This document shows positions 27,959 to 44,583 of a DNA stretch of 45,104 bases, piece after piece. The translations under genes and the position numbers were made by a program. The notes beneath the pieces were generated by a model that was not told the origin of the DNA, searched no databases, and saw nothing but the letters and a program-made list of their open reading frames with translations. Source of the DNA: a virus (lineage: Duplodnaviria; Heunggongvirae; Uroviricota; Caudoviricetes); IMG/VR virus record IMGVR_UViG_2619619135_000002, one strand, 5' to 3'. Every line of letters begins with the position of its first letter. The stretch's first letter is position 1.

Positions 27959-28110
27959 ACACAGGGGCAGCAGGCTTGTCATCACCTCATCGCTACTCCT
28001 GGCTTCCTGTTCGGAAGTCTCACAAGTCCCATCAGGGTACAGCGACAGTATCAGCCAACACACTATGTGTGTCAATATAAATTCATATCGAATTCGATAA
28101 TCGTTTTCGA

Positions 28111-28512: not shown

Positions 28513-28616
28513 AAATCTCTTTGCCTGATAATGACGACTTGTGAACTCCACTACAAACAAAATGATTCTGCTGAACAGGCAGTTTCGCACTATACATTAT
28601 AACCTGTTAAGCCAAC

Positions 28617-28639
28617 AAAAAAACCCGCTCGGCGGCGGG
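28617..28639 (-). terminator. Rho-independent terminator downstream of the Q-like gene (tR'-like)
   Basis: Minus strand reads CCCGCCGCCGAGCGGGTTTTTTT, 67-89 nt after the Q-like stop. Confidence 0.7.
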
Positions 28640-28705
28640 ATTTGCTTACTTTGCCATCGAGTACAAAATCGGCAAAATATCAGATTTGCACGAAATATAT
28701 GCCTT

Positions 28706-29395
28706 TTAATCTACTTTTGCAACACTTTGCTTTGAAAATGCCGTCTTTTGTTCTGAACGTGTTCTCATCACAAACAATAAAGCCTCACTATCCAGCCGGT
28801 GGAAAATGTGTTTCATTGCAACCCAGTGACCAGTAAATGTTTTGGACCAGTTTTTTGTTTTTACTCCCGCCAGTAATGCCAGTTCCTGATATTCATAAGT
28901 TTCACGCCCAGCCAGCTCACTCTTCACATCCTGTGCCGCCAGCCAGATTAATTTTTTCAGGCGTTCCCGTGTTTTCTCCGCAATTTTTCTGGTACCGGAT
29001 TGAGTATTAAATTCATTCCACGCCCACTGTGTTATCGCGATCTGATATTCCCAACAAATACTCCCGCTGTAACTCCACAACAACCAGGCTTTATGATGTT
29101 CTTCAAGAGACAGAACAGCCCGCCGCCACGATGATGTCGAAAACTCAACCGGACTGACCAGAGGAATTGACGTCCCCTTCGCCAGCGATTGTTTTCCCGG
29201 GATTGGTGGATTATCCCGCGTAATCATTTTTCCGGTCACTTCATCTCGGTACCGGATTTTTTTACGCCTGTAACGCCCTGTATCGAACATGGCATTCTCC
29301 TGCCAGGCTTCAAGCTGACCTTTTGTTGCCCCACTCAAATCAGCGGTGGCGATAATGAGCTGCTCACGCACAAACTGTAAATACTGGTTATTCAT
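28706..29395 (-). CDS. Putative late-gene antiterminator (Q-like), 229 aa
   Basis: ATG overlaps the RusA stop (ATGA coupling), the arrangement seen in DLP12-type nin regions; followed by an intrinsic terminator and then late and lysis genes. Assignment is by position; the sequence is not recognisably lambda Q. Confidence 0.5.
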   Translation of the reverse strand: MNNQYLQFVREQLIIATADLSGATKGQLEAWQENAMFDTGRYRRKKIRYRDEVTGKMITRDNPPIPGKQSLAKGTSIPLVSPVEFSTSSWRRAVLSLEEHHKAWLLWSYSGSICWEYQIAITQWAWNEFNTQSGTRKIAEKTRERLKKLIWLAAQDVKSELAGRETYEYQELALLAGVKTKNWSKTFTGHWVAMKHIFHRLDSEALLFVMRTRSEQKTAFSKQSVAKVD

Positions 29396-29751
29396 GCGCA
29401 CTCCAGTTCTGTGATTTTTATCCCCAACCGACCACCAGGAACGAGCTGACCGCGCACAATATTGATTTCATCAAACTGCTCGTCGTCTATGAGAAGCCCC
29501 GCATGCATCAGTGCATCCAGCGGTGCTTTCAGGATATTGTCCAGGTCCCGACGGCGCTTATCCGGCGGCTCTGCAGTAATTTTTATTGCCAGCCTTCCGG
29601 ACAGGCTTAATTTCAGCCGCTGCTGGCGAACAATAAGCACCACAGCCCGGCGATAACGCTTTCCCTCCTCCGAGATAAAATATGTGCTGCCACGGCGTCG
29701 CCAGTAAGTGTTCACCGTCGGCGGGTAAGGTAAAACCAAATCTATGAGCAT
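29392..29751 (-). CDS. rusA: Holliday junction resolvase RusA
   Basis: 119 aa with ...PPDKRRRDLDNILKAPLDALMHAGLLIDDEQ..., the conserved RusA catalytic Asp region; size matches E. coli RusA (120 aa). Confidence 0.85.
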   Translation of the reverse strand: MLIDLVLPYPPTVNTYWRRRGSTYFISEEGKRYRRAVVLIVRQQRLKLSLSGRLAIKITAEPPDKRRRDLDNILKAPLDALMHAGLLIDDEQFDEINIVRGQLVPGGRLGIKITELECA

Positions 29752-29763
29752 CAGTCACCTCTT

Positions 29764-30813
29764 TTACCCAAGCACGCCAGTTGCAAAGGCGTGATCAAGA
29801 AAACGAAAAATTAAATCAACCTGAGAACCATGCTTTTCTTCGAACGCCAGCGGATCCGCATGAAGCTCGTTGTGATGCTCCCGACACAGCGGTAGCGTGA
29901 AAATATCGTGAGATTTTGTCCCCATTCCGCCCTGACCATGACCAATCAGGTGATGGGGATCGTCGGCTGGCTTACCACAACACGCACACGGCTGTGTCTT
30001 CACCCAGCGTGTGTATTTCTCGTTAACCCAGCGGCGACGTTTAGGTCGTTTCATGAAAGATTCCGGAGACTCAGGATCAACGGCAATGCTGACCACCGTC
30101 TTTTCCTGTGGTGGGTTCTGTTGCTGGTGGGCGTGAGGCAGCGGCGCAAGATTTTTTGTGCGCTGTTTCAGTATGCTGGTGGCGGTCTGCTCTCCCGGTA
30201 CGATGTCGCTTTCACGGTACATTGAGCGGATTTTTTCCGCACGCAACCCCAGCGAACGACGTAATACCGCCTCCGGTAGCGCGTCCGCCACCTGATTGCG
30301 GACCGCCCACCAGGATAATTCAGCCAGCGATAATTCCCGCTCCTGTGTGCCATTCATTGCGTGACGAATGACGTCAATCATCCATGCTGACAAGTTTTGG
30401 TGAGCAAGTTGCTCAAGTGATTCGGAGGTCTGGTCACGCAACTGGTTGTCGCAGTGCCAGCACAACACCATTGCGCCGGTACCATAACGGTGAATGACGG
30501 TTTCACTATGGTGATAATCGCCGTGTGGCCACTGGCAGGATTTAACATGGCGCAGTAACCAGTCAGACAATGCGCCAGCGCCACCAGCAGCACGAATCAC
30601 TCGTTCGTCGCTGAAAAATGGCAGTAATGATTTATCCTCCGCCAGCGGCTGGCGAACGGCAGGAACGACCCCGGACGGCAGATTACGCATGCTTTTCGGT
30701 TCCGGCTCCACCAGTACCCGGGTATTGTGGAATACCGGCATGGATTCACGGCCCGGCTTAACTATCACCAGCCCGAGTTCCGGTACCAGAACAGGTCGAA
30801 GTAATACCCGCAC
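29764..30813 (-). CDS. DUF968-type nin-region protein (YdfU-like) with a C-terminal Cys/His zinc-binding or HNH-like motif
   Basis: 349-aa ORF; C-terminal ...CACCGKPADDPHHLIGHGQGGMGTKSHDIFTLPLCREHHNELHADP...; GTG start abuts the upstream stop; an internal ATG at 30741 is an alternative start. Confidence 0.6.
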   Translation of the reverse strand: MRVLLRPVLVPELGLVIVKPGRESMPVFHNTRVLVEPEPKSMRNLPSGVVPAVRQPLAEDKSLLPFFSDERVIRAAGGAGALSDWLLRHVKSCQWPHGDYHHSETVIHRYGTGAMVLCWHCDNQLRDQTSESLEQLAHQNLSAWMIDVIRHAMNGTQERELSLAELSWWAVRNQVADALPEAVLRRSLGLRAEKIRSMYRESDIVPGEQTATSILKQRTKNLAPLPHAHQQQNPPQEKTVVSIAVDPESPESFMKRPKRRRWVNEKYTRWVKTQPCACCGKPADDPHHLIGHGQGGMGTKSHDIFTLPLCREHHNELHADPLAFEEKHGSQVDLIFRFLDHAFATGVLG

Positions 30814-30814
30814 G

Positions 30815-31093
30815 TTACCTCCAGATGCGTTGCTGGAATGTGCGGGACGGACGCGGTGGGCGTTCGGAGTAAGGAAGCCTGACGGAGATTATCCAGTGAC
30901 GGTAGTCGAGGCTAAGGGCTTTTTTAACCTCGTATCCGCGCCTGCGGTAACACTGAATTATCCATTCAGCCTGCTCTTCAGTGCATGGTGGATGCTGGAA
31001 CCAGTCCGATTTGAATGCATGAAAACGCCGTCCGCACCTGCTGGCAAAGACGGCAGAATCATCAGAATTGTGTAATTTGGTATCGTGCGCCAT
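30815..31093 (-). CDS. Hypothetical nin-region protein (92 aa from the ATG)
   Basis: The listed ORF starts with TTG; the first ATG gives MAHDTKLHNSDDSAVFASRCGRRFHAFKSDWFQHPPCTEEQAEWIIQCYRRRGYEV...; stop immediately precedes the DUF968 start. Confidence 0.45.
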   Translation of the reverse strand: MAHDTKLHNSDDSAVFASRCGRRFHAFKSDWFQHPPCTEEQAEWIIQCYRRRGYEVKKALSLDYRHWIISVRLPYSERPPRPSRTFQQRIWR

Positions 31094-31551
31094 CGGTTGT
31101 CTCTGCTGGCGCAGCAGGTGCCAGTTGTTCAGGCTGGCGTATAAAGTATAAATAAACTGGTTCCAGTGTAAAGCCCCTACATTAATGGAATAAAAGTCAA
31201 ACAACAGATTGCTGGGATAAACACAACGCTTATTATTAAAAGCGATTAGATAAATTAAATTTTAATGTTATGCAATTTTACCAGATCACCATAACATCTC
31301 GTTTGAAACCACCGAAACAACAACCATATCAATATTGATTATGTTAAAGTGAGTAAATATGGAAAACAACAAATCTGCACATTACGCTCCTTTTTTATCT
31401 GTGATACTTTTTGTTTTATGCTGTGTGTGGGCATTATTTTTATAAAAATATTTACAGATAAAATAAACCCGCCGAAGCGGGTTAAGCGCGGGTGCGTTGA
31501 GGATGCCTGACACATCAGAGGCGGCGAGGGATTTCTCCCTCGCCTGGTCTC

Positions 31552-31707
31552 TTACTCCTCAGGTTCGTAGACTGTGAAGACAGCGACCTCCGTCTGGCCG
31601 GTTCGGATTCGTACCTCGCAGAGGTCTTTCCTCGTTACCAGTGCCGTCACTATGACGGTTAAACAGATGACGATCAGGGCGATTAACATCGCCTTTTGCT
31701 GCTTCAT
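31552..31707 (-). CDS. hok: Hok/Gef-family type I toxin (HokD/RelF-like), 51 aa
   Basis: MKQQKAMLIALIVICLTVIVTALVTRKDLCEVRIRTGQTEVAVFTVYEPEE: single TM helix plus the conserved C-x-[VI]-R periplasmic motif; near-identical to HokD as recalled. The in-frame upstream extension in the listed ORF is likely leader (mok-like) sequence. Confidence 0.85.
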   Translation of the reverse strand: MKQQKAMLIALIVICLTVIVTALVTRKDLCEVRIRTGQTEVAVFTVYEPEE

Positions 31708-32554
31708 AGCCTGCTTCTCCTTGCCTTTCGGCACGTAAGAGGCTAACCTAGATTTGCCGTTCATAGATTGAGCCTCAGATTAATGTTAAGCGTCTTGCAG
31801 GACGCGTAATGTTAACTGGGGCTTTTCTCTATCTGCCTTTGGTGTTCATGCCTGAGACAGATAGCCTCAAGCACCCGCAGCCATTGTACTTAACTCCCGT
31901 TACCTCGCCAATATAAAATCAATCAGAAAGGCGATCCATAAGGACAATAGCAAGACAATAAATTGCCATTACCCGCAATAGCCAGCGCACATTTGAGGAC
32001 CAGCACGACAACTTTCTGTATCGGACGTACACCAGTCCTGATAAATACAAGGCGGTCTCATCAGTGATGAAATGCAACTATTGAGTACAGTTTCTCTGAT
32101 TTTTCTGTAAAACATGGAACACAACAACTAAATATAACTAGCACTTCTTAAGATGTACAAATTCAGAGTTAAGATAACGTAAGCAGTTTTCTCAAAACTA
32201 AGTGTAAATTTTTAATGAAGAGCAGTGCTATGCTCCTGATCATATATTCATTGTTTGGAACTGGAGGAATATTTAGGTTGCTGGAGTGGTTGATTGAATT
32301 TAAATCAACTAAGACAAAAACCAACAATTAAAGATATGTGGTATATCAGAAAACAACTATCCGTATATTACTACAGAATTAAATACTAGCAACAAAGCTG
32401 TCTTTATTGATTTTTTATCTGATATCGAAATAAATAAACATAAAATAACCAACTAATTAAAACAGAGACTCGACAATGAGCCTCTATCTATTGTAACAGC
32501 ACTTCCAAATTTATTTTAGTAAGATAATAGCATGGGGCATACTAGCCCCATCTT

Positions 32555-35059
32555 TTAAACCGTTTCATCAAGGAAATACTTAGACGAATCATCCTGTTTC
32601 GGTTGATATGTTTTTTTTGCAGAATTAAGAACTCTTCTTAGTTCTTTTCTTAACTCAGGTAAACGCTCCTGAAGAGGGTTAGAACACCATTGTGAAGGCA
32701 ACCCTCTTATAATAGCTTCGGAACAAAGCGGTGAAATAAGTTTTTCCATTTGATAATAGAAAGTTTTTGCTCGACTTACACGCATTGTGATCCTTTTTAT
32801 TACATCTCTTTCAGACTCAATTCTAGCACTCAGATCTCTTAATCTACTCCATACCTTAGCATCAGCAATATATGTATCATAAAGCATACACTCTATAAAC
32901 GTGAAATTACTAATAAGTTCTTTTGCAATATACCCCCCCAGCCGAGAAGGAATGAAACTTGATGAAGCTGTTGGATCTCCGTGATTTACGGTGAACAAAA
33001 ACCTTTTATTGCATAAATCAACGAGAACTCGATGCGTGAAAGAGTCACCTATACCAATTAACCTTAACTTTTCAGTTATTACCGAACCATCGATTTGTCT
33101 GAATCCGGGATCGCTTGCATACGAAACGATAACATTAAGAATGTACAGCCTCAATAATTGCATTTGTGTCACAGCTAAATTCGAATCAAACGGGTTCGCA
33201 ATAGTCGACGTTGACTCGCTATAAGTCAACTCAGTACCCAGTAATATAGCTCTAAATGCCTCATGACGTGGAAGAAGATATCTTCCTTGTTCTCTGAAAA
33301 TTTGTACTGCTTTACCTGGACTCGTATACCCTCTTTCTAAGAACTCACGAGTCATACGTAATGCTAATCGAACATCATCCGTAGCAAGAACTTCAATACG
33401 TGTTCCAATCTCACTTCCCAGCACAGACCCACTAATAATATCGACTAATTGTGATATATCATCCAATACAACTTTAGCGCCATTTTCTGCAATAAAATTT
33501 CCACTTTTATTACTTGTCATATACTTTACTAGTGCAAAGCGTTTTGCAATCACACTACTTATTCTCGGTGGATCTATTTGTATAACTTCAAAATCGAAAG
33601 CATCTATAGCAGGTGAGTTTTTATGTTTGATAAATGTAGACTGCCTCAATGAAAGTACTAAATTTAATGAAAGCGCTCTGGAAATTGAAAATGACTCGGT
33701 AAATATCCGGGACTGGATATCATCAAACTCGATCTGATCAACGTTATCAATAACAAGAAAAAAAGATGTCTCTTTTGTAACGCGACTTATTATTTTATCA
33801 ACATAAGGTTTTATCTTTTTATATTGTTCATATAAAAAATCCGAGATTCTGGTATTTTTTTGATCCTCACTCAATAAAAAAAGAGGTCCTGATTTTATCG
33901 CCTCAATATCTTCTCGAAATGCATCAAATACAAAATCCTTATTACTCAAAACAGGATGCTTATTGATATATTCCAGAATTGATTTATAAATAAAATCGAC
34001 TATTGAACTTTCTGATGGATTATCTAGAAAGTCTATATGAACCCAATGCGGCGTCAAGATATCACATTGATTTGAAAAAAACTCTTTTATTCTAACCTTT
34101 CTCATGTAATGAAGAAATGTTGTTTTACCTGCACCTACAGTCCCAAGTAACAAGATCGCGAGAGGTTTGTCATTCCTGACTTTTATTTTTTTCTTCCCTT
34201 TAACCTGAAACTTATCAACTATTCTTTTTGTATCTTTATCATTAAGCCCTTTTAGTACTTCACCATTCAGCACACTTGAACGCCTACCTATATTCATTCT
34301 AATTTTACTATCGAATCTCATAGTTTCTGGTGTTGAAACATAACATTTATCAAAGGAGTCTTCATCCAAGTAAAGTATAGAATCAGAAAAAGCCAACCTT
34401 AATTCATCAGCAATCAAATGATATATTGGATTATTTGTCTGTGTTCTGTTTTGTTGCGAATAAAAATTTCTTAATTTTCTAAATTCTATTTGATTTTCGA
34501 CGCGACCTAAAAGTGCTGTTTCTAGACTTCCTGATATAACATTTTCACGACTAAGTAAATCATAGAATTCTTGATAATTATCATTTAAGCAATCTTCTAA
34601 CGACCAGAACACAAGCGCTATTGAATCATTAAATTTGACATTGTCATGCCTCTGAGCTGCAAAACATGCCCATACATTTCCATTCGTAGCGACAGCATAA
34701 TCTATACCAAATTTCCTGGCGTAATCTCTAGCTTGTATTATCGCTTCACCAAGATCACTTTGTAAAAAACTATTACTTAGCTTTATTTTTCTTTTTCCTG
34801 GAATTGTACTAAAGCTTGGCCCTGCCTTTTTAGCTTCAACAACAAGAGCAATATTAGCTGTTTTTAGTATATAATCAGCATAAGTTGTCAAACCATCTTC
34901 AGTCACATGCTCTTCTGGTTTTATATCACTATCAGTCCACATCAAGACTTCCTTTAATACCCGATCTATCACTTTTAGTCTTGTGGCTGCTTCATTTGCA
35001 TTTTCTAATTGTAAATGATGATAAGCTGATAATATTTCCGAAATAAATGTTTTCTCCAT
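32555..35059 (-). CDS. Large nuclease-NTPase fusion protein: N-terminal PD-(D/E)xK (HsdR-N/Mrr-like) nuclease domain plus STAND/NACHT-like P-loop NTPase plus alpha-helical C-terminal domain; candidate antiphage defence protein
   Basis: 834 aa. Residues about 60-77 TYADYILKTANIALVVEAKK give the D...E-x-K nuclease signature, followed by ...YAVATNGNVW... Walker A at about 306-313 (GTVGAGKT); Walker B at about 433-442 (FFLVIDNVDQ, a D-x-h-D-E/Q pattern typical of STAND NTPases). The gene and its flanks are visibly AT-rich relative to the rest of the prophage. Confidence 0.6.
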   Translation of the reverse strand: MEKTFISEILSAYHHLQLENANEAATRLKVIDRVLKEVLMWTDSDIKPEEHVTEDGLTTYADYILKTANIALVVEAKKAGPSFSTIPGKRKIKLSNSFLQSDLGEAIIQARDYARKFGIDYAVATNGNVWACFAAQRHDNVKFNDSIALVFWSLEDCLNDNYQEFYDLLSRENVISGSLETALLGRVENQIEFRKLRNFYSQQNRTQTNNPIYHLIADELRLAFSDSILYLDEDSFDKCYVSTPETMRFDSKIRMNIGRRSSVLNGEVLKGLNDKDTKRIVDKFQVKGKKKIKVRNDKPLAILLLGTVGAGKTTFLHYMRKVRIKEFFSNQCDILTPHWVHIDFLDNPSESSIVDFIYKSILEYINKHPVLSNKDFVFDAFREDIEAIKSGPLFLLSEDQKNTRISDFLYEQYKKIKPYVDKIISRVTKETSFFLVIDNVDQIEFDDIQSRIFTESFSISRALSLNLVLSLRQSTFIKHKNSPAIDAFDFEVIQIDPPRISSVIAKRFALVKYMTSNKSGNFIAENGAKVVLDDISQLVDIISGSVLGSEIGTRIEVLATDDVRLALRMTREFLERGYTSPGKAVQIFREQGRYLLPRHEAFRAILLGTELTYSESTSTIANPFDSNLAVTQMQLLRLYILNVIVSYASDPGFRQIDGSVITEKLRLIGIGDSFTHRVLVDLCNKRFLFTVNHGDPTASSSFIPSRLGGYIAKELISNFTFIECMLYDTYIADAKVWSRLRDLSARIESERDVIKRITMRVSRAKTFYYQMEKLISPLCSEAIIRGLPSQWCSNPLQERLPELRKELRRVLNSAKKTYQPKQDDSSKYFLDETV

Positions 35060-35768
35060 AGATTATTCTCTCTATAAAAAATAACGAAAATTTTTCTGAT
35101 TAGTTTTACCGCATTTAGTTACAATAACCTAGCTATGTCAAGTCTGATGTTATCCTAAATTTCATTTTTGTTATATTATCCTCTAATTCTTAAGGCACAC
35201 GTTTGAAAAGCGTCGACTTTCTCCTGTATGCTCTGAAGGTATCATTTACTCTGATTTTTCACGCAGTGTGCCGGATAGTTTTCTGTCAGGATAGAGCCCT
35301 AGATGACACGGATGACCGCTGATGACCTGAATATGATCATGTCGCTAACATTCGCCATGGGTAATATTATTAGCCAATCCCGCCCCATCTGTTCATTCTG
35401 CTCCTGAATGCCCCCCCCCGAAGTCAGCAGACTATGGCCTCGTTGCTGACATGCTCAGAGCCAACTCCTTACCCCCTTACGTAGAAGCAATCTCAGGCAC
35501 CATTAGTGATTACGGTAACCGAGCAGTTGTATTACACCGAACCGACTACCGCTATCATCAACACCTATCTTTGGGGCATAAAAGCGTGGCATAAAGGAAG
35601 CAACTAGGCAGTGATTATGTAAGTACATCTGTAAAACGGACCATCCATTTTAAATATCCTCTGATCCCCCTCAATATCCACCTCTAGCACAAAGCGGACA
35701 ACCACGCTAGCTCTCCCCTGTACCATGAAAATTTCAATTCACATATGTATTAATGCTCTTTAGTCTCT

Positions 35769-36191
35769 TCACTTCAATAAATACTGAGAATCCCCCTGAT
35801 AAAACGACAATATGCGCTGCATAACTTCGCTTTTACGGCACTCACTACAAATTATATTATGATGCCTGTCGTAGCGACGTATTTCTCCATCAGGTAATGA
35901 CCAGATAAGGTCCGGATCAACCGCAGATGGTTTCTTCAGCTTTGCCCTTGAGAGCTTTTTACGGGCATTTTGCCAGTCCTTACGCGCCTGTTCAGACGGG
36001 AATAACCCGTAACCAGAGTTGTATACATCGCCACTGGCAACCAGCTCTCTGGCCAGAACGCTCATCAGATATCTTGTTGCCCCAGTTTTAGCTTCCAGTT
36101 GTTGTAACGTCTCGCGCCCACTCTGGCGTACGAGTTCAACAACCTGCCCTTTAATTTTTTCCCGCTCTTCTTGTGTAAAAACTTTTGCCAC
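35769..36191 (-). CDS. Hypothetical protein (140 aa), possible HTH; occupies the position downstream of the replication initiator
   Basis: ORF of normal GC content with ...TLQQLEAKTGATRYLMSVLAREL...; no firm family assignment. Confidence 0.45.
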   Translation of the reverse strand: MAKVFTQEEREKIKGQVVELVRQSGRETLQQLEAKTGATRYLMSVLARELVASGDVYNSGYGLFPSEQARKDWQNARKKLSRAKLKKPSAVDPDLIWSLPDGEIRRYDRHHNIICSECRKSEVMQRILSFYQGDSQYLLK

Positions 36192-36231
36192 AAGCCCTCC
36201 TGAAAATTACCTCATGACCAGAAATTAACAC

Positions 36232-37308
36232 TTACCCCCTGAAGCCCGGCGGAATTTCGTTATCCGGTTCAGAAATATGATTCACACAACGCTGGTTGTT
36301 CGTGCCGCTTACCGGGAGCAACCAGGGGTTCTCAAAATTCCTGTCCGGTCCAAAAAACGTCGTCGCTCGCTGAACAAATTCCGTTCCCGTTTTCCCGGTA
36401 GCCGCCAGGTATCTTGCGTAACGCCTCACGCCATCCAGCATGGCCTCTGGTGGCACCCCCTCGCGTAATCTGGCCTTCCAGGCACTGAAAGCGGATTTCT
36501 TCGGGTTTGCTCCGGCACGCAACGGGTACTCCCGCCAGACCTGTTCGAACACATCCGGATAATCCACTCGTCCCACAGACTGCCCGGTGTTTTCCGGGAC
36601 TACCCGATCGGCTTCCCGCTGAATGGCGGAATCGGCTTCAGGCTGCTGCAGTTGGTGTGATTGCTCCGGCCTTGCGATCATCACCTGCTGCACAGCGCCC
36701 GAATCGGCTTTCAGCGCATACGCTGAATCGGCTTCCGGTGTCGTGCCTGCTGGCTGACCAGGATTGACGGTCTGAACATCCCCTGCCTGGTTCGTGGCGT
36801 TTTTTACGCCATGGACCATAGTGTTTTGATCTTCTTGATCTGTATCTTTATCTGTATCTTTATCTGTCGTGACTCGTCGTGACATGTGCGTGACATTTCG
36901 TGACGCGCCGTGACAATCGCCATTTTGTTCCCGCTTTCTTTCCCTCTCTCGCTGCGCCCTCTTGCGCTCTGCAGGAGATTTTGCGGTTTGCGAAATATTG
37001 CCGTTGTCCTCTTTAAGCACCTGGCGTTTTTCCCATCCAGTGATTAAATCACCATCAAGTCCCCGCCCCTGCATCGTCTGCAAAATTGAATCAATTACCT
37101 CTTCTGTCACGTCGAGCGCACTTGCCAAATCTTCTGTCGTGACATCAATGTGACCTCGCGTGACATTTCGTGACGCGCTCACCAGGAGGTGGATATACAC
37201 TGCCATCACTGTTGCAATTGGCTGCCCTGACACCCTGGCAATTGTTCGCCACTTAGGGTCATTTGGCATGTCATGCCATAATCTGAGCCAGGCGTTAGCC
37301 ATACTCAC
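36232..37308 (-). CDS. Replication initiator / replisome organiser (O-like) carrying the origin iterons inside its coding sequence
   Basis: 358 aa; N-terminal wHTH-like MANAWLRLWHDMPNDPKWRTIARVSGQPIATVMAVYIHLL; position downstream of cro/cII-like genes; two CGTGAC iteron arrays lie inside the gene, mirroring lambda O/ori organisation. Confidence 0.65.
   Translation of the reverse strand: MSMANAWLRLWHDMPNDPKWRTIARVSGQPIATVMAVYIHLLVSASRNVTRGHIDVTTEDLASALDVTEEVIDSILQTMQGRGLDGDLITGWEKRQVLKEDNGNISQTAKSPAERKRAQRERERKREQNGDCHGASRNVTHMSRRVTTDKDTDKDTDQEDQNTMVHGVKNATNQAGDVQTVNPGQPAGTTPEADSAYALKADSGAVQQVMIARPEQSHQLQQPEADSAIQREADRVVPENTGQSVGRVDYPDVFEQVWREYPLRAGANPKKSAFSAWKARLREGVPPEAMLDGVRRYARYLAATGKTGTEFVQRATTFFGPDRNFENPWLLPVSGTNNQRCVNHISEPDNEIPPGFRG
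36868..36914. repeat. Iteron array 1: five CGTGAC repeats at 10-11 bp spacing, with adjacent TGTATCTTTATC tandem repeats
   Basis: CGTGAC at 36868, 36878, 36889, 36899 and 36909; preceded by TATCTGTATCTTTATCTGTATCTTTATCTG at 36841-36867. Confidence 0.7.
37138..37174. repeat. Iteron array 2: four (C/T)GTGAC repeats at 10-11 bp spacing
   Basis: CGTGAC at 37138, 37159 and 37169 and TGTGAC at 37149. The 19-mer CGTGACATTTCGTGACGCG is shared with array 1. Confidence 0.7.
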
Positions 37309-37373
37309 CTCTTCTGATACCGAATCGTTTTACTCACGAGTTGCCGGAAGCGATTCGATATGGCTATTGTCAG

Positions 37374-37799
37374 TCAATGTACTGCCACAGCATTTCCTGC
37401 CGGGCCACCACGGTTCATCTGATTGAAACCGGCGATTGCCACTGCGACAAAATCATCAGCGTCTCTCACCAGTCGCGCCCGCGTCTCCACCAGCTCCCGA
37501 AAATAAGCTGAACTGTGGCTGTGCATTCTGGCCACCAGCAAAGGTGGCATTGCCTTTTCGATCGCTGGTAACAACGCCTGAATTTTTTCAACTGCATCAG
37601 GGGTGTCTTTCTCTACCCAGCGGAAAATTTTCTGGGTATTGCGAGCCAGGGCTTCCGGATGGCTGTCGTCGTACAGTTCCGGGAACGTCATTCCCAGTTC
37701 GAAATACGCTTTGGTAATTTTCGCAGCCGGTACTTTTTCGCCGTCCGGATGCGCCCAGGCATTCATCGCCATGCGGATGTGTTCATGCTTGATTTTCAT
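37374..37799 (-). CDS. cII-position protein, YdaT-like (142 aa from MKIKHEH)
   Basis: Position immediately after the Cro-like gene, as for ydaT after ydaS in Rac-type prophages; N-terminus MKIKHEHIRMAMNAW. Family assignment is from memory and uncertain. Confidence 0.4.
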   Translation of the reverse strand: MKIKHEHIRMAMNAWAHPDGEKVPAAKITKAYFELGMTFPELYDDSHPEALARNTQKIFRWVEKDTPDAVEKIQALLPAIEKAMPPLLVARMHSHSSAYFRELVETRARLVRDADDFVAVAIAGFNQMNRGGPAGNAVAVH

Positions 37800-38025
37800 G
37801 AATCCCCCCTTGGTTAGAAGGCGGATTATGATCAGAACCGGGAATGACAACCGTCGGTATGTGTAACTCATATTTGAGCGCCCCGGCAGTGACTGCCTGA
37901 ATTAGCAACGCCCATTTCCACGGAACCTCTTCCCCCCACATGCTGACTGTGGTTTTTGACGTTCCTAGAGCTGCGGCTGTTTTAACAACTCCGCCAAAAT
38001 AGCCTAATACTTCTGATTTTTTCAT
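37783..38025 (-). CDS. Cro/YdaS-like HTH regulator (80 aa from MKKSEV)
   Basis: GGAG SD before ATG; ...VKTAAALGTSKTTVSMW... HTH; divergent from the repressor gene across the operator region. Confidence 0.65.
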   Translation of the reverse strand: MKKSEVLGYFGGVVKTAAALGTSKTTVSMWGEEVPWKWALLIQAVTAGALKYELHIPTVVIPGSDHNPPSNQGGIHENQA

Positions 38026-38054
38026 GAGTCGCTCCATAAAACTGAACGCCAAAA

Positions 38055-38116
38055 GTTTAATAATCAAAACCAAAGAAAGTCAAGAAACAAAACCATATGT
38101 GTTTTAAAATCAAAAC
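38055..38116. promoter_or_regulatory. OR-like operator/promoter region with two 16-bp GTTT(T)-N6-AAAAC sites
   Basis: GTTTAATAATCAAAAC (38055-38070) and GTTTTAAAATCAAAAC (38101-38116, abutting the repressor ATG); a third related site sits at the PL-like promoter. Confidence 0.55.
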
Positions 38117-38755
38117 ATGAGCAAGCAAACAATATCTGAACGCATAACCCAACGTATGCATGCGCTAAACCTGAAAGGCAAAGACCTTGTCAATGCCACT
38201 GGCGCATCAAAAGGCTCCGTAAGTCAATGGATGAACGGTGGAGGAGCGCCGTCCTCGCGTTACATAAGTTCACTGGCAAAGATATTGAAAGTAAACGAAA
38301 ATTGGCTTCTTAATGGAGGAGAGTTAAATACAGGTGATTCGCTTGATCTATCTTTACCGCCGATAAAAACGGTTCCGCTACTATCACTTCAGCAGGCAGC
38401 AAGCTGGAGTGATTATATGAAAAATTCCTCAATAACCTCTTGTGTGCAGCTTGTCGGAGAAATCCCGGCCAATACCTTTGCAGTTGTTCTAGAGAGTGAC
38501 AGTATGTCAACATCTGGTGGGGGAGTTTCCATCCCAAATGGTTCAACAGTTTTTGTTGATCCCGATCGAACCGTACAACCAGGAAATATTGTCCTTGCCT
38601 TACCCAAAGGGACCACAACACCTGTCATTCGTAAACTGGAGATAGAAGGGCCGGATATTCTTTTAGTCCCCACGAATCCTCGCTACCCTTCAATTATGCT
38701 GGAAGATCTATCTTGCATATTGGGCGTATGCTTTAAAATTCAACAAGATATTTAA
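38117..38755 (+). CDS. Phage repressor (CI-like; HTH plus LexA/S24 autopeptidase domain)
   Basis: 212 aa; N-terminal HTH; C-terminal S24 domain with Ser in VLESDSMS and Lys in PVIRKLE; no Shine-Dalgarno and an operator abutting the ATG, consistent with a leaderless PRM-type transcript. Confidence 0.85.
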   Translation: MSKQTISERITQRMHALNLKGKDLVNATGASKGSVSQWMNGGGAPSSRYISSLAKILKVNENWLLNGGELNTGDSLDLSLPPIKTVPLLSLQQAASWSDYMKNSSITSCVQLVGEIPANTFAVVLESDSMSTSGGGVSIPNGSTVFVDPDRTVQPGNIVLALPKGTTTPVIRKLEIEGPDILLVPTNPRYPSIMLEDLSCILGVCFKIQQDI

Positions 38756-38822
38756 CCAACCTCATCTATTTGATTAACTGTATGCCATCGTGGTGATGGC
38801 TTAACAGCTGCCTGCCTAAAAT

Positions 38823-38868
38823 GTTTTGATAAAAAAACATTGACCTGAAAAGTTCATTTTTCTAAACT
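38823..38868 (+). promoter_or_regulatory. PL-like promoter with overlapping operator
   Basis: GTTTTGATAAAAAAAC (38823-38838) then -35 TTGACC (38840-38845), 17-bp spacer, -10 TAAACT (38863-38868). Confidence 0.5.
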
Positions 38869-38966
38869 TCATTCATTCCCTCACCCCACCCCACAGAACG
38901 CCGGGCAATACTTCGAGTTACCAGGCAGTGGTCAGGGGTTAAGTAGCCAGCCCGAGGCGTAAGAAC

Positions 38967-39197
38967 ATGACGGCAGGGTTCAACTTTAACTATGCAGCAG
39001 GTTTTTGTTCCGCCACCCCGGCGTTAAGGGGAAATGAGGTCAGCATGGATACTATCGATCTTGGCAACAACGAGTCTCTGGTATACGGCGTGTTTCCAAA
39101 CCAAGACGGCACGTTCACGGCGATGACGTATACCAAAAGCAAAACGTTTAAAACCGAAGCTGGCGCGCGTCGCTGGTTAGCCAGAAATACTGACTGA
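38967..39197 (+). CDS. Hypothetical small protein (76 aa; alternative internal start MDTIDLG)
   Basis: First ORF downstream of the PL-like promoter; GAGG SD candidates before both possible starts. Confidence 0.4.
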   Translation: MTAGFNFNYAAGFCSATPALRGNEVSMDTIDLGNNESLVYGVFPNQDGTFTAMTYTKSKTFKTEAGARRWLARNTD

Positions 39198-39208
39198 TGA
39201 GGTTGACG

Positions 39209-39538
39209 ATGGAATTTAAAGATTTACCAATGCCATTCCAGGAAATGGCAGCGAATATAGTTCATTCTCAATTGGCGACTCTTGACCTGAGTACCGTAGA
39301 AAAAGAAACCATCGATAATATATCCGGTAACGTGCGTCGTGCCTTTATCGGTCTGTACGAAGAGAAGCAACTCTCTGATAACCAGGATTTACATAAAAAA
39401 TACTTCCTGGAATTAATGGACATCATTAATAAGGGGTTTGGCTTGTTAATGGAAAAGAAAGGGATTCGGATAGAACCCCTTGAAAATTGCTTCGTAACAA
39501 GAAGCATCAATTCTTTTGATTCAAAACAAGAGAATTAA
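39209..39538 (+). CDS. Hypothetical protein (109 aa from MEFKD)
   Basis: GAGG 7 nt before the ATG; overlaps the stop of the preceding ORF; lower GC than the structural genes. Confidence 0.45.
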   Translation: MEFKDLPMPFQEMAANIVHSQLATLDLSTVEKETIDNISGNVRRAFIGLYEEKQLSDNQDLHKKYFLELMDIINKGFGLLMEKKGIRIEPLENCFVTRSINSFDSKQEN

Positions 39539-39782
39539 TTACAGATTTAACATGCTCTTTCTCATGATTGAAGCTCTCAGGGTTGAAAGTGCCCGGCTGA
39601 AGCGAGTCGATATAATCAACGAGATTCTTTCGTACCGTTTCATCTTTATTCATGGCAGATGCAAGGTATGAAATTGCTAACAATGTTATATCACTACGCG
39701 CCGCAGCATGCTGTAGTGTTTTATCAAAATCATTAATTTTCCGTATAAGAGAGTTAAGAGTTTCATTGACATCAAACCCCAT
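39507..39782 (-). CDS. Hypothetical protein (91 aa from MGFDVNETL), convergent with the PL-side genes
   Basis: AGGAGG SD 5 nt before the ATG at 39782. The 202-aa listed ORF includes a GC-rich upstream extension judged to be non-coding. Confidence 0.45.
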   Translation of the reverse strand: MGFDVNETLNSLIRKINDFDKTLQHAAARSDITLLAISYLASAMNKDETVRKNLVDYIDSLQPGTFNPESFNHEKEHVKSVINSLVLNQKN

Positions 39783-40348
39783 TTCATCCTCCTGAGGGTT
39801 AGTAATTAAGGAGTTCTCCACGGGTGAGGTGGAGTGCGTGCGCCGGACACGGGTGAGCATCCGGCACTGACAGTTTACTGAAAGGATATCTCCCTGAAAA
39901 GTCAGGGCATAACGCGAAAGCGCACGGCGAAGTTGTTGGTTCATAGATAGCCTGTCGTTAAATTTTCGTCGACCGTGCGCTTCCGGTTGTGGCACTCCGC
40001 GAAATGGCGCGGCGGTAAGTATGGCGGGGTTATTCCTTCCCCGTTGAGGACACCGGGTTGTCAGGTTGACCATACGCTTAAGTGACAACCCCGCTGCAAC
40101 GCCCTCTGTTATCAATTTTCTGGTGACGTTTGGCGGTATCAGTTTTACTCCGTGACTGCTCTGCCGCCCTTTTTAAAGTGAATTTTGTGATGTGGTGAAT
40201 GCGGCTGAGCGCACGCGGAACAGTTAAAACCAAAAACAGTGTTATGGGTGGATTCTCTGTATCCGGCGTTAATTGTTAACTGGTTAACGTCACCTGGAGG
40301 CACCAGGCACCGCATCAACAAAGTTCATTTGTAAAAATGGAGATAATT

Positions 40349-40570
40349 ATGATTGCTCATCACTTCGGAACTGATGAGATTCCTCGTCAGTGCGTGACTC
40401 CCGGTGATTATGTTATTCATAAAGGAAGAACATATATTGCTTCGGTAAACAACATTAAAAAACAACGGCTCTATATTCGTGATTTTTCCACACAACACTG
40501 TATTAAGGAAACCATGATTAAAGTCTTCCTTGGTCGTGATGGTTTACCTGTAAAAGCAGAGTCATGGTGA
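40349..40570 (+). CDS. Hypothetical protein (73 aa from MIAHHFG)
   Basis: GGAG 7 nt before the ATG; immediately upstream of the large exonuclease gene. Confidence 0.4.
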
Positions 40571-40693
40571 GCAGTAATAAAATAACTGCCACAATACGAC
40601 ATTCAGCTTAATGAATACATCAGATTTGATTCTTATATGCCAGCAATGGCAGGGATTTGTTCATCCTTAAATCTGTAATGAGGTTAAAACAAA

Positions 40694-43165
40694 ATGAGTA
40701 AAGTCTTTATTTGCGCCGCCATTCCGGACGAACAGGCAATAAAGGAAGAAGGTGCAGTTGCTGTAGCCACTGCCATTGAAGCCGGCGACGAACGCCGCGC
40801 CCGTGCCAAATTTACCTGGCAATTCCTGGAGCAACATCCGGCTGCTCAGGACTGCGCTTATAAATTTCTTGTCTGTGAGGATAAACCCGGCATGGCCCGC
40901 CCTGCCCTTGATTCCTGGGATACCGAATATATGCAGGAAAACCACTGGGATGAGGAATCCGCTTCCTTTATTCCGGTCGAACCAGAATCCGATCCGATGA
41001 ACGTCAATTTTGACAAGCTGTCCCTTGAAGTACAGAACGCGGTCCTAGTTAAGTTCGGTACATGTGAAAACATCACCGTTGATATGGTGATTAGTGCACA
41101 GGAATTGTTGCAGGAGGACATGGCAACATTCGACGGGCATATCGTTGAGGCATTGATGAAAATGCCTGAAGTTAACGTCATGTATTCAGAGCTTAAGCTG
41201 CTCGCCATCGGGTGGGTTAAACATAAATGTAATCCAGGTGCCAAATGGCCCGAAATTCAGGCAGAGATGCGCATCTGGAAAAAACGTCGCGAAGATGAAC
41301 GCAAGGAAACCGGAAAATACACGTCTGTTGTTGATCTCGCCCGCGCCAGAGCCAATCAACAGCACACTGAAAATTCAACAGGAAAAATCAACCCGGTCAT
41401 TGCTGCCACTCATCGCGAATACAAGCAGACATGGAAAACACTGGATGACGAACTGGCCTACGCTCTCTGGCCTGGTGATGTGGATGCCGGAAACATTGAC
41501 GGCAGCATCCATCGCTGGGCAAAAAATGAAGTTATCGACAACGACCGCGAAGACTGGAAGCGTATCTCGGCATCAATGCGCAAACAGCCTGATGCCCTTC
41601 GCTACGACCGCCAGACTATTTTTGGCCTTGTCCGTGAACGTCCGATCGACATTCACAAAGACCCTGTGGCACTGAACAAATACATTACTGAATACCTGAC
41701 TACAAAGGGCGTGTTTGAAGATGAAGGAAGAAATCAGAGCGCAACTGATACTCTCTCGGCGCCAGTACCAGAAACTGATGCAGTGGAAACGGCAATTCAG
41801 GACAACGAAAAAACCGAATGCAAAGTGGAAGTCGAACCATCTGTAGAGCGTGAGGGGCCGTTCTACTTCCTCTTCACCGACAAGGATGGCGAAAAATACG
41901 GTCGCGCAAACAAACTTTCTGGTCTGGGTAAGGCACTGGCTGCCGGGGCTACTGAAATCACGAAAGAAGAATATTTCGCCCGCAAAAACGGTACATACTC
42001 AGGTTCACAACAAAATACTGGTGCATCTGACACGACCGCACAACCAGGGCCGGTAAAAGTTACCGCTGACGAAGTAAACAAAATTATGCAGGCAGCCAAT
42101 ATCAGCCAGCCTGACGCCAATCAGTTGCTTGCTGTATCACGTGGTGAATTTGTTGCAGGGATTAGCGACCCGAATGATCCGAAATGGGTGAAAGGGATTG
42201 AAACCCGCGATTCTGTGAACCAGAACCAGCAAGAAACGGAACAGAACGACCAGAAAGCGGAACAAAACAGCCCAAATACGCAACAAAACGAGCCAGAAAC
42301 GAAACAACCTGAACCAGTAGTGCAACAGGAACCGGAAAAGATCTGCACCGCCTGCGGTCAGAGCGGTGGCGGCAACTGCCCTGAATGTGGTGCGATGATG
42401 GGCGACGCAACATACCAGGAAACATTCGATGACAAGAACCAGGTTGAAGTTCAGGAAGACGATTCGGAGAAAATGGAAGGCGCTGAACATCCACACAAGG
42501 AGAATGCTGGCAGCGCTCAGGACCACGCCAGCGATAGTGAAACTGGCGAGACGGCAGATCCCTTAATTAAGGTGAACGGTCATCACGTTATCACATCCAC
42601 CAGCAGGACGTGTGACCATCTAATGATCGACCTTGAAACCATGGGAAAAAATCCTGATGCCCCGATTATCTCAATAGGCGCAATATTTTTCGATCCACAA
42701 ACCGGAGATATGGGACCGGAATTTAGCAAGACCATCGATCTGAATACTGCTGGCGGAGTCATTGATCGTGACGTCATTAAATGGTGGCTTAAACAATCAC
42801 GCGAAGCGCAATCTGCCATTATGACCGATGAAATCCCGTTAGATGATGCACTGTTACAATTGCGGGAATTTATCGACGAAAACTCCGGTGAATTTTTTGT
42901 TCAGGTCTGGGGAAATGGAGCCAACTTCGATAACACGATTTTGCGCCGTTCATACGAACGGCAGGGGATCCCATGCCCGTGGCGTTACTACAACGATCGC
43001 GATGTACGCACAATCGTTGAGCTGGGGAAAGCCATAGACTTCGATGCCAGAACGGCTATTCCATTCGAAGGTGAGCGCCATAATGCACTTGATGACGCCC
43101 GTTACCAGGCAAAATACGTTTCAGCAATCTGGCAAAAACTGATCCCGAATCAGGCTGATTTTTAA
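40694..43165 (+). CDS. RecE-like (exodeoxyribonuclease VIII family linker) protein with a C-terminal DEDDh 3'-5' exonuclease domain
   Basis: 823 aa. Central region (...SRGEFVAGISDPNDPKWVKGIETRD...CTACGQSGGGNCPECGAMMGDATYQETFDD...) resembles the RecE linker as recalled. The C-terminus carries DnaQ-like motifs: Exo I MIDLET, Exo II VWGNGANFD, Exo III HNALDDARYQ. Confidence 0.7.
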   Translation: MSKVFICAAIPDEQAIKEEGAVAVATAIEAGDERRARAKFTWQFLEQHPAAQDCAYKFLVCEDKPGMARPALDSWDTEYMQENHWDEESASFIPVEPESDPMNVNFDKLSLEVQNAVLVKFGTCENITVDMVISAQELLQEDMATFDGHIVEALMKMPEVNVMYSELKLLAIGWVKHKCNPGAKWPEIQAEMRIWKKRREDERKETGKYTSVVDLARARANQQHTENSTGKINPVIAATHREYKQTWKTLDDELAYALWPGDVDAGNIDGSIHRWAKNEVIDNDREDWKRISASMRKQPDALRYDRQTIFGLVRERPIDIHKDPVALNKYITEYLTTKGVFEDEGRNQSATDTLSAPVPETDAVETAIQDNEKTECKVEVEPSVEREGPFYFLFTDKDGEKYGRANKLSGLGKALAAGATEITKEEYFARKNGTYSGSQQNTGASDTTAQPGPVKVTADEVNKIMQAANISQPDANQLLAVSRGEFVAGISDPNDPKWVKGIETRDSVNQNQQETEQNDQKAEQNSPNTQQNEPETKQPEPVVQQEPEKICTACGQSGGGNCPECGAMMGDATYQETFDDKNQVEVQEDDSEKMEGAEHPHKENAGSAQDHASDSETGETADPLIKVNGHHVITSTSRTCDHLMIDLETMGKNPDAPIISIGAIFFDPQTGDMGPEFSKTIDLNTAGGVIDRDVIKWWLKQSREAQSAIMTDEIPLDDALLQLREFIDENSGEFFVQVWGNGANFDNTILRRSYERQGIPCPWRYYNDRDVRTIVELGKAIDFDARTAIPFEGERHNALDDARYQAKYVSAIWQKLIPNQADF

Positions 43166-43226
43166 TGTTCAACCGTCGCCAGTTGTCGTTGGTATTCTGC
43201 AACTGGCGCGTTCCGGAGTGATAACC

Positions 43227-43496
43227 ATGAGCGAACAGTACCTGATAACGCTCGATGAGTGGAAACCAAAACGGTTCAGTCTCCCAATAACAAACACTAC
43301 CCTGGTGAAATACGGAAAACTAGGATACATCGTTCCAAGACCACAAAAAATTCGTGGGCGTTGGCTGATAGATCGCCGGGCAGTATTTGTTGGACCTGGT
43401 GAAACGGGAATTGCGCCGGAAATTCATACTGGCGATGATGATGCACTGAAGGAGATTTTAACTCATGTCACCGAGGCCACGAAAAAACAGCACTGA
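43227..43496 (+). CDS. xis: Excisionase (Xis-like)
   Basis: Small basic protein immediately upstream of and overlapping int; MSEQYLITLDEWKPKRFSLPITNTTLVKYG resembles the lambda Xis N-terminal pattern. Confidence 0.6.
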   Translation: MSEQYLITLDEWKPKRFSLPITNTTLVKYGKLGYIVPRPQKIRGRWLIDRRAVFVGPGETGIAPEIHTGDDDALKEILTHVTEATKKQH

Positions 43497-44583
43497 CGTA
43501 ACCGGTCTTTACGAAAAGTTTGATCGCAGAACTGGCAGGGTTTACTACCAGTATAAAAACCCTGTGACTGGAAAATTTCACGGTCTCGGAACAGACAAAG
43601 GCAAAGCAGAAAAAATCGCTTCCACAGCCAATCAGCGAATAGCTGCAGCAGAAGCTGAATATTTCATGCGCAAAATTGATGAAAGTCCGTCAGCAACAAA
43701 ACGTCGGGGTATCAGATTAAAGGCATGGGTTGATCGATATCTGAAAATACAGGACACGCGACTGAAAAATGGAGATATTGCAGCTACAACTCACAAAGAA
43801 AAAACTCGAATGGCTGCATACCTGGTTTCCCGTCTGGGAAACCACCCATTGAAAGAACTGGAAGTAAGAGACTTTGCATTAATACTGGATGAGTGGCTGG
43901 ATAAAGACATGGTCAGCACAGCGAGAGTAAATCGCGGATTATGGGTTGATATTTATAAAGAAGCACAGCATGCAGGGGAAGTCCCTCCCGGATGGAATCC
44001 TCCGGAGGCTACCCGTAAACCGATCCCTAAAGTAACCAGAGCCAGGCTCACTCTGGAAGACTGGCAAAAAATTTACAACGCAACGCCTGAAAAACACTTT
44101 ATCCGTAACGCAATGCTTCTTGCGATTGTTACTGGCCAGCGCCGTGATGACATTTGCCACATGCGTTTTTCAGATGTGTGGAACGATCACCTGCATATTA
44201 CCCAGGGAAAAACTGGAATGCGTCTTGCGTTACCGCTTACGCTACGCTGTGATGCCATCGGGATATCGCTAAAAGAAGTGATTAATGGATGCAGGGACAG
44301 GATATTGAGTCCATACCTGATTCATAGTCGGCACCAGAAACAACCAAAACCAATGAGTAAAGACAACCTGAGCGATTACTTTGCCAAAGCGCGGGATCTG
44401 GCTGGAATAATTCCACCAGCCGGAAAAACACCGCCAACATTTCATGAACAACGCTCCCTGTCAGAACGGCTGTACCGGGCACAGGGTATCGATACAAAAA
44501 CATTACTGGGACATAAAGTCCAGGCAACTACCGATCGTTATAACGATACTCGTGGTCAGGAATGGGTTAAATTGGTTATTTGA
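43465..44583 (+). CDS. int: Tyrosine integrase (lambda Int family)
   Basis: 372 aa; alignable by eye to lambda Int along its length, including ...AIVTGQRRDDICHMRFSDV..., ...TFHEQRSLSERLY... and ...LLGHK...RYNDTRGQEW (catalytic R, H-x-x-R and Y regions). Confidence 0.9.
   Translation: MSPRPRKNSTDVTGLYEKFDRRTGRVYYQYKNPVTGKFHGLGTDKGKAEKIASTANQRIAAAEAEYFMRKIDESPSATKRRGIRLKAWVDRYLKIQDTRLKNGDIAATTHKEKTRMAAYLVSRLGNHPLKELEVRDFALILDEWLDKDMVSTARVNRGLWVDIYKEAQHAGEVPPGWNPPEATRKPIPKVTRARLTLEDWQKIYNATPEKHFIRNAMLLAIVTGQRRDDICHMRFSDVWNDHLHITQGKTGMRLALPLTLRCDAIGISLKEVINGCRDRILSPYLIHSRHQKQPKPMSKDNLSDYFAKARDLAGIIPPAGKTPPTFHEQRSLSERLYRAQGIDTKTLLGHKVQATTDRYNDTRGQEWVKLVI

Follow-up and report, generated by a model that had tools for sequence, protein, structure and literature searches.

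The window studied here is a stretch of 45,104 nucleotides from a virus of the class Caudoviricetes (IMG/VR record IMGVR_UViG_2619619135_000002). With hok/sok, a DUF968 gene, the gene of the Q antiterminator, DicF and a lambda-type integrase, it represents a Qin-like lambdoid prophage. At positions 40694–43165 of its plus strand lies a gene encoding a protein of 823 amino acids (aa), which had been described from the letters alone (further referred to as the original prediction) as a RecE-like protein with a DEDDh 3'-5' exonuclease module and no annealase partner. The open reading frame (ORF) exists exactly as claimed, and its ATG is preceded by a GAGG ribosome-binding site approximately 10 nt upstream. 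The gene belongs to an already catalogued and extremely common family of Escherichia coli lambda-like prophages, and its class of modules was described in 2025. The new observation is that the proteins of this group appear, from comparison of their sequences, to carry interchangeable C-terminal heads on a shared scaffold, the heads co-varying with the downstream gene. The gene consists of the following parts.

40694–43165, plus strand: the whole gene, an intact predicted 3'-5' exonuclease gene of the YdfE family (ATG start, 823 aa and a stop codon, taken from the list of ORFs).
40694–41473, plus strand: YdfE_N module, aa 1–260, with an alpha/beta domain (approximately aa 1–100) and a helical domain (approximately aa 110–205); not homologous to the RecE N-terminus.
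41474–42013, plus strand: middle module (YdfE_C region), aa 261–440, with a helical part (approximately aa 245–345) and a small beta/alpha part (aa 388–435); delineated using BLASTP against RecE, the phmmer domain map and the AlphaFold2 (AF2) model.
42014–42580, plus strand: linker, aa 441–629, acidic, rich in Gln and Glu, predicted to be mostly disordered; delineated using a partial match to NCBIfam PRK09709, BLASTP and the predicted local distance difference test (pLDDT) of AF2.
42344–42388, plus strand: four-cysteine zinc-ribbon-like motif CTAC...CPEC, aa 551–565, kept in RecE (weak match to Pfam DZR, E-value 0.045).
42617–43132, plus strand: predicted DEDDh (DnaQ-like) 3'-5' exonuclease domain of the Rv2179c/DexA clade, aa 642–813 (Pfam PF16473, alignment with DexA, Foldseek).

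The C-terminal head matches PF16473 (Rv2179c-like 3'-5' exoribonuclease) at aa 642–813 with a score of 222.5 bits against a cut-off of 27 (E-value 4e-66), the match covering positions 2–177 of the 177 positions of the profile. A weaker match to RNase_T/DEDD in Pfam falls on the same stretch. The catalytic residues were located in an alignment that took in DexA of phage T4 and two stand-alone phage exonucleases, from mEp460 and mEp235. The set is complete: D646 and E648 (Exo I), D746 (Exo II), H796 and D801 (Exo III) are aligned with D7, E9, D119, H186 and D191 of DexA, respectively. The only sequence matches in the PDB are two entries of T4 DexA, 8kel and 8ken. In the AF2 model used for the head (aa 441–823), pLDDT at aa 640–823 is mostly 70–90, and the best Foldseek match in the PDB is again DexA 8kel (E-value 2e-9, probability 1.00), followed by RNase T and then by the Cas2-DnaQ domain. 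The model thus suggests an RNase H-like DEDD fold, and the head is predicted to be a DEDDh 3'-5' exonuclease with an intact active site.

BLASTP against RecE of E. coli K-12 aligns only aa 262–625, with RecE residues 278–591, at 38% identity overall (E-value 2e-60), so that homology of the middle module to RecE begins at RecE residue 278. The identity is visibly much higher from approximately aa 478 on; this part includes CTACGQSGGGNCPECG at aa 551–566, which corresponds to CNACGQTGGDNCPDCG in RecE. The RecE equivalog NCBIfam NF007259 is matched with 276 bits against a cut-off of 1269, at profile positions 438–602 only. No alignment of the RecE nuclease domain (residues 592–866) with the protein was produced by BLASTP or phmmer, and PF16473 occupies the place of this domain. 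The PD-(D/E)xK nuclease of RecE has reportedly been crystallised as residues 606–866. In PMC11611040 the nuclease domain of RecE is given as residues 564–866.

These comparisons bear out what the original prediction said of the central region, which is RecE-like and has the zinc-ribbon-like CTACGQ...CPECG segment, and of the head, where DnaQ-type Exo I, II and III motifs stand instead of the PD-(D/E)xK nuclease. The domain search that it had proposed as a refuting check returned PF16473 and no RecE-type domain at the C-terminus. The likeness to RecE holds for aa 262–625 and does not extend to the first 260 aa, which form a different module, YdfE_N.

Residues 1–256 are 90% identical to the product of the K-12 pseudogene ydfE, and relatives at least 90% identical to the protein carry the precomputed Pfam domains PF27430 (YdfE_N), PF27432 (YdfE_C) and PF16473. 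By the identity to ydfE and, through these relatives, by the Pfam domains, the protein is predicted to be a member of the YdfE family. PHROG 2082 ('exonuclease') spans residues 1–823 of 823. The AF2 model of aa 1–450 has a mean pLDDT of 84.7; the YdfE_N module is a structural orphan. The match of the linker to NCBIfam PRK09709 is partial (aa 445–625 on profile positions 438–602), pLDDT is below 50 across most of aa 441–637, and a conserved motif is located at approximately aa 458–500. The linker is both the part most like RecE and the junction at which heads are exchanged.

Ratios of nonsynonymous to synonymous substitution rates (dN/dS) were computed pairwise against six orthologues. They equal 0.14–0.36 in the N-terminal, middle and nuclease modules and 0.3–0.55 in the linker, where the constraint is the weakest in the whole gene; for the whole gene the values are 0.18–0.32. 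Given these values, all four modules are under purifying selection, and the gene is maintained and functional. At the same time, dS differs several-fold among modules of the same gene pair (comparisons with orthologous loci L002, L010, L020, L021 and L022; with L002, for instance, the middle module gives 0.44 and the nuclease head 0.016), and therefore the gene contains recombination breakpoints.

A RefSeq gene 99.8% identical to it bears the name '3'-5' exonuclease'. When complete E. coli genomes were searched with megablast, at least 80% of the gene was found in 3530 genomes of 5426, annotated 'exonuclease' or '3'-5' exonuclease', with a median of 2 and a maximum of 10 matching places per genome having any match. 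It is thus among the commonest prophage genes of E. coli, present in approximately two-thirds of complete genomes and often in several copies. The unit formed by the recE nuclease and recT occurs in 1728 of the same 5426 genomes, that is, the YdfE-type gene is approximately twice as frequent. Isolated, viable phages, HannyBb and Tritos among them, carry the full-length gene as well, and it always adjoins xis/int. A scan of genome contigs with the single protein yielded only eight loci; Escherichia accounts for five of them and Shigella for one, and the remaining two come from metagenome bins that bear the labels Veillonella and Proteobacteria. The combination of features singled out by the original prediction is therefore not unusual: it is about twice as common as recE/recT, and both DnaQ-like nucleases and nuclease-only modules were described in 2025.

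A profile-free search with aa 1–640 retrieved only 244 relatives among 1.84 billion 50%-identity representatives; therefore the scaffold family is narrow. The architecture of the heads was determined by phmmer mapping of reference modules onto the long 50%-identity relatives. The N-terminus of scaffold relatives is of either the YdfE type or the RecE type (PF06630), and the middle module and the linker are common to them. Four kinds of heads were observed: DEDDh, RecE-type PD-(D/E)xK, a third one (PHROG 2489/7838, 'exonuclease') and a fourth one (PHROG 26058), the last two having no Pfam match. All four combinations of the N-terminus (YdfE or RecE) with the head (DEDDh or PD-(D/E)xK) exist. 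Representative proteins (the P numbers are our designations) and the genes that follow them are as follows.

P0129, P0249 and P0141: RecE_N with a DEDDh (Rv2179c-like) head; followed by xis/int or int, with no annealase among the genes called at the locus.
P0133: YdfE_N and YdfE_C with a PD-(D/E)xK head; followed by a RecT-like gene (phrog_561, E-value 3.5e-101).
K-12 RecE: RecE_N with a PD-(D/E)xK head; followed by recT.
P0189 and P0134: third head type; followed by an overlapping Sipho_Gp157 gene.
P0126: fourth head type; followed by small ORFs, xis and int.

After DEDDh heads, xis/int come directly next for N-termini of the YdfE and RecE types alike. A head and its partner gene seem to be exchanged as one unit, with the joint in the disordered linker, and the DEDDh head has no partner. 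In effect, the unit 'RecE nuclease domain plus recT' is replaced by the DEDDh head.

The relatives with the third head (P0130, P0134, P0136, P0153, P0165, P0176 and P0189, encoded in loci L016–L019) are always followed by an overlapping Sipho_Gp157 gene. For the fourth head (P0126, loci L013–L015, PHROG 26058), no obvious partner was seen. Proteins with these two heads may be those that PMC12315714 calls 'RecE-2' and in which no nuclease domain is recognisable.

The neighbourhood of the gene contains the following features.

38117–38755, plus strand: CI-like LexA/S24 repressor gene at the head of the leftward operon (Pfam Peptidase_S24 and HTH_3).
40118–40169, plus strand: DicF small RNA of the early-left operon (Rfam RF00039, 76.7 bits against a gathering score of 48).
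Approximately 40239–40322, plus strand: dicB remnant 3' of DicF (a dicB pseudogene is annotated at the same place in two related prophages, L001 and L002).
40349–40570, plus strand: KilR-type FtsZ inhibitor, 73 aa, the upstream neighbour (NCBIfam NF008465, 140 bits against a cut-off of 92).
43218–43496, plus strand: excisionase gene (xis), the downstream neighbour, with no gene in between (Pfam Exc and the Prokaryotic Genome Annotation Pipeline, PGAP).
43465–44583, plus strand: lambda-type integrase gene (int) at the prophage end (Pfam Arm-DNA-bind_1 and Phage_integrase).

Between the repressor and the exonuclease gene lie a DUF1391/ydfA-like ORF, a 113-aa ORF, DicF, the dicB remnant and the KilR-type ORF. 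The statement of the original prediction that the PL operon is reduced to the exonuclease gene and a 73-aa ORF was therefore wrong. In near-identical prophages the 73-aa ORF is labelled kil by PGAP, and in related, near-identical genomes int adjoins potC. Since no promoter-like site was found between kil and the exonuclease gene, the simplest reading makes the latter the final gene of the left operon controlled by the repressor, ahead of xis/int.

The cassette of cell-division inhibitors is mosaic: Tritos and other related phages have intact dicB and ydfD where the window has the dicB remnant and the KilR-type ORF. A long antisense ORF without a family match is located at 39507–40115 of the minus strand, between the 113-aa ORF and DicF; its counterpart in related prophages is a 145-aa hypothetical protein in RefSeq.

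Pfam searches of the ORFs from 32.5 kb to int, of four ORFs of the Q/nin region and of alternative-frame ORFs found no annealase (RecT, Bet, Erf, Rad52 or Sak). Six-frame searches of the 45-kb window by tblastn and phmmer gave no significant match to RecT, lambda Bet, two Erf proteins, a RecT-like protein or Gp157, nor to lambda Exo, a YqaJ nuclease, Gam, Abc2 or a phage single-stranded DNA-binding protein (SSB). An annealase hidden within the exonuclease gene was considered as well: its alternative-frame ORFs of 110–145 aa have no Pfam match. As the original prediction held, no recT- or bet-like gene lies between the exonuclease gene and xis, which is the next gene, and the recT-like gene in another frame that it had named as a possible refutation was sought among the alternative-frame ORFs with Pfam and not found. 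The gene is not one half of a two-component exonuclease/annealase recombinase.

The window is rich in Chi sites.

25118–44420: span from the lysis region to int containing 12 Chi octamers (GCTGGTGG), eight on the minus strand and four on the plus strand.

The 12 observed octamers compare with 1.8 expected, and none of 100 shuffles reached 12; the structural genes (1–25 kb) contain none. The terminase genes (19834–22279, minus strand) place cos near 22.4 kb, and the eight minus-strand octamers are oriented so as to act on RecBCD that enters from the right cos end. A module type named 'Tritos' (PMC12315714, Genome Res 2025) consists of a nuclease without an annealase, SSB or an anti-RecBCD function; four of its four members are Chi-rich, with top/bottom-strand Chi counts from 21/6 to 7/2 (Table 1, class B). 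The 8/4 split of the window is within this range, all of its octamers being between cos and int. In every feature tested (nuclease only; no annealase, SSB or anti-RecBCD gene; Chi-rich) the window fits the Tritos class. According to the same study, DnaQ-like nucleases occur in recombination modules of lambdoid phages, genes of DnaQ-type nucleases are found sporadically near int, and growth of phage LLS, a Chi-rich lambdoid phage without any recombination module, is aided by RecBCD (PMC12315714).

Having no annealase and no anti-RecBCD gene and being Chi-rich in the orientation suited to the right cos end, the phage most likely relies on host RecBCD–Chi–RecA recombination for its lytic growth. 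After induction or infection, the protein would be made from the repressor-controlled left operon. Its exonuclease would trim 3' single-stranded ends of phage replication and recombination intermediates, the scaffold tethering or targeting the nuclease. A possible purpose would be that 3' tails are blunted so that RecBCD can load, no 3' tails being made for an annealase. RNase T, the next structural match after DexA, was crystallised with duplex DNA bearing 3' overhangs. We tentatively propose, with rather less than even confidence, that the protein trims 3' DNA ends of phage intermediates and thus serves phage growth dependent on host RecBCD and RecA. Going further, and only as a long shot, the YdfE/RecE scaffold might be a general platform that targets DNA ends, or a factor of host recombination or replication, and into which phages plug different nuclease heads; the DEDDh version would then be pro-RecBCD, functionally the opposite of Gam.

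Several points weigh against the trimming proposal. No structural homologue of the scaffold was found that would indicate what it binds. The choice between DNA and RNA as the substrate is not readable from the sequence, and the Pfam family of the head is named for an exoribonuclease. The co-variation of heads and partners comes from approximately eight loci and is not a census. Host single-stranded DNA exonucleases of E. coli blunt 3' tails for RecBCD loading, and the blunting step is borrowed from this general background. In the literature searched, including searches for Rv2179c and ydfE, no biochemical or genetic test of a YdfE-type protein was found. Finally, 3'-5' exonucleases 'curiously, usually inhibit homologous recombination' (PMC12315714).

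Alternative explanations are considered below, from the more to the less probable. The DEDDh head could serve superinfection exclusion or defence, degrading modified DNA (HREX-like) or 3' ends of RNA phages (TONDO-like) and thus protecting the host. EcD, a plasmid-borne DexA homologue from E. coli ('HREX'), degrades T4 DNA and protects against T4 (PMC12153337), and the head is in the same DexA clade. ISG20-like 'TONDO' DEDDh exonucleases with auxiliary domains, some of them in prophages, block MS2 and Qbeta; however, the authors set their genes apart from other defence-associated DEDDh domains (PMC13344964). PADLOC yielded a weak match to a Cas-associated DEDDh model (generic, E-value 2e-5), but none of its system models was matched convincingly. 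The HREX signature is lacking in the head: D90 of DexA is kept as D718, and the proposed 5-hydroxymethylcytosine-recognition residues of DexA, W152 and D169, correspond to Y766 and K779, the latter assignment being less certain given that the alignment around DexA position 169 is gapped. An EcD-like protein of 189 aa recovered via the published primers has the reported A78 and, at the other two positions, W132 and E145; it is only 37% identical to the head. Moreover, a gene at the operon end, behind kil and DicF and with no promoter-like site of its own, should be silent in the lysogen. We regard a role in defence as unlikely.

It is distinctly unlikely that the head acts as an exoribonuclease, or on small nucleic acids such as defence RNAs, retron multicopy single-stranded DNA (msDNA) or signalling oligonucleotides, disarming defence systems of the host or co-resident ones during lytic growth. 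Such a function would agree with the naming of the Pfam family after the exoribonuclease Rv2179c, with the presence of RNase T, REXO2 and 3'hExo among the structural neighbours, with the lack of an annealase partner and with the early position of the gene, where many anti-defence genes lie. There is no direct evidence for it, and the characterised protein closest to the head, on sequence as well as structural grounds, is the DNA exonuclease T4 DexA. The scaffold elsewhere bears a DNA exonuclease head of the RecE type, and across genomes the co-variation involves recombination genes and Chi content. The anti-defence suggestion of the original prediction is neither supported nor excluded by these data; the context points to RecBCD/Chi-linked processing of DNA ends instead.

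Quite improbable is an end-protecting or anti-recombination function, in which 3' resection at double-strand ends would leave long 5' overhangs unloadable by RecBCD, substituting for Gam, or would destroy 3' tails and so limit RecA loading and SOS. The phage has no homologue of Gam or Abc2, and the usual effect of DnaQ-type single-stranded DNA exonucleases on recombination is inhibitory, as quoted above. However, the large surplus of Chi sites in the correct orientation speaks for use of RecBCD and not for its blocking, Chi-rich LLS grows better with RecBCD (PMC12315714), and phage mEp235 has both a stand-alone homologue of the head and a gene noted as anti-RecBCD, so that the two are not redundant.

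Very improbable, in our view, is scavenging, in which host DNA fragments would be broken down to supply phage replication with nucleotides. This is the classical role of T4 DexA, to which the head is homologous and which is annotated with host DNA degradation among other roles. Degradation of the host chromosome is not known in temperate lambdoid phages, no accompanying set of endonucleases was found in the window, and a conserved 640-aa scaffold would be needless for simple scavenging. The notion that the gene is a decaying, functionless remnant of a RecE-type gene after partner loss, suggested by the truncated ydfE of K-12 and by the opinion that one- or two-gene recombination modules are 'somewhat suspect' (PMC12315714), is scarcely credible and already largely refuted by the conservation data, namely an intact full-length ORF in isolated phages as well as in 3530 genomes, dN/dS of 0.14–0.36 in every folded module and the full set of catalytic residues.

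If the protein indeed trims 3' ends in favour of RecBCD, then RecBCD would load on the phage DNA and the phage's own Chi sites would convert it into a recombinase loader, which would explain the recombination-dependent growth of annealase-less, Chi-rich lambdoid phages. By helping phage DNA to enter the RecBCD–Chi pathway, the gene would provide the missing phage-encoded part of a host-exploiting strategy inferred from Chi statistics, and this would bear on prophage recombination in pathogenic E. coli. The interchangeable heads, in turn, are a natural experiment on the unexplained N-terminal 600 residues of RecE, which is of interest for recombineering.

Other features of the window were noted as well. 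An 834-aa ORF (32555–35059, minus strand) coincides with an island of 34% GC content at approximately 32–35 kb, compared to approximately 50–58% elsewhere. It has weak matches only (NACHT/P-loop, HSDR_N and a model of a methyl-directed restriction enzyme) and is hypothetical in RefSeq; it looks like cargo between the replication and nin regions, possibly a defence gene. A hok/sok-type type I toxin–antitoxin system (31552–31876, minus strand) consists of sok RNA (31702–31876, 110 bits in Rfam) and a hokD-like ORF. An ORF for a PemK/MazF-like toxin (28111–28590) is situated on the transcribed strand, the minus strand, just 5' of the gene for antiterminator Q. A gene for tRNA-Gly (anticodon TCC; 26083–26157, minus strand) lies between the lysis genes and Q and adjoins a DNA methyltransferase gene (N6_N4_Mtase; 26375–27421, minus strand); in the related prophage L002 two tRNA genes are found at its place.

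Among known systems, the K-12 pseudogene ydfE of Qin has the same neighbourhood as the gene in the window (a ydfA-like ORF, DicF, dicB, the gene itself and int), but IS2 truncates it after residue 256 and both linker and nuclease are missing, so that the window provides the intact form. RecE of Rac shares with the protein the middle module, the linker with the zinc-ribbon motif, the position 3' of kilR and the large size. The N-terminal 260 aa of the two are unrelated (Exonuc_VIII, PF06630, in RecE and YdfE_N in the window), and RecE has a PD-(D/E)xK 5'-3' head and recT, whereas the protein in the window has a DEDDh 3'-5' head and no recT. Two candidates examined for kinship proved to be of other types: exoD of K-12 DLP12, considered as a C-terminal fragment of a YdfE-type gene, is a lambda-Exo-type fragment without similarity to it, and exo of phage D3 (paired with Erf, PMC3945230), considered as a DEDDh enzyme, is of the YqaJ/PD-(D/E)xK type. 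A paper on Gifsy-1 and RtcR, consulted for a link between prophages and nucleases, was not relevant (PMC9879122).

The head itself has several stand-alone relatives. Rv2179c of Mycobacterium tuberculosis, a small stand-alone bacterial exoribonuclease, is the founder of PF16473, the family shared with the head; it is not among the PDB sequence matches of the head. T4 DexA (exonuclease A, 8KEL) belongs to the same DEDDh family at approximately 25–28% identity. The exonucleases of mEp460 and mEp235 are 58–60% identical to the head, and epsilon34 is named as another phage with a stand-alone DnaQ-like exonuclease (PMC12315714). In mEp235 the gene sits in a recombination module, after the genes of Erf and SSB, in that order, and before the one noted as anti-RecBCD, and therefore this domain family is tied to recombination functions. 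EcD, from E. coli and of the same DEDDh clade, is likewise a stand-alone protein, of approximately 189 aa and starting with MIDTET. DexA and the stand-alone exonucleases of lambdoid phages have 180–230 aa, whereas the window has the domain in fusion with a scaffold of 640 aa.

The closest known system is that of phage Tritos, the prototype of its module class, whose orthologous nuclease TRITO_27 is 87% identical to the protein over all 823 aa. In both, the gene is the last one before xis/int and is located 3' of DicF and a cell-division inhibitor, the nuclease is the only recombination gene, and the genome is Chi-rich. The window differs in that dicB is a remnant and kil replaces ydfD; in nothing essential do the two differ.

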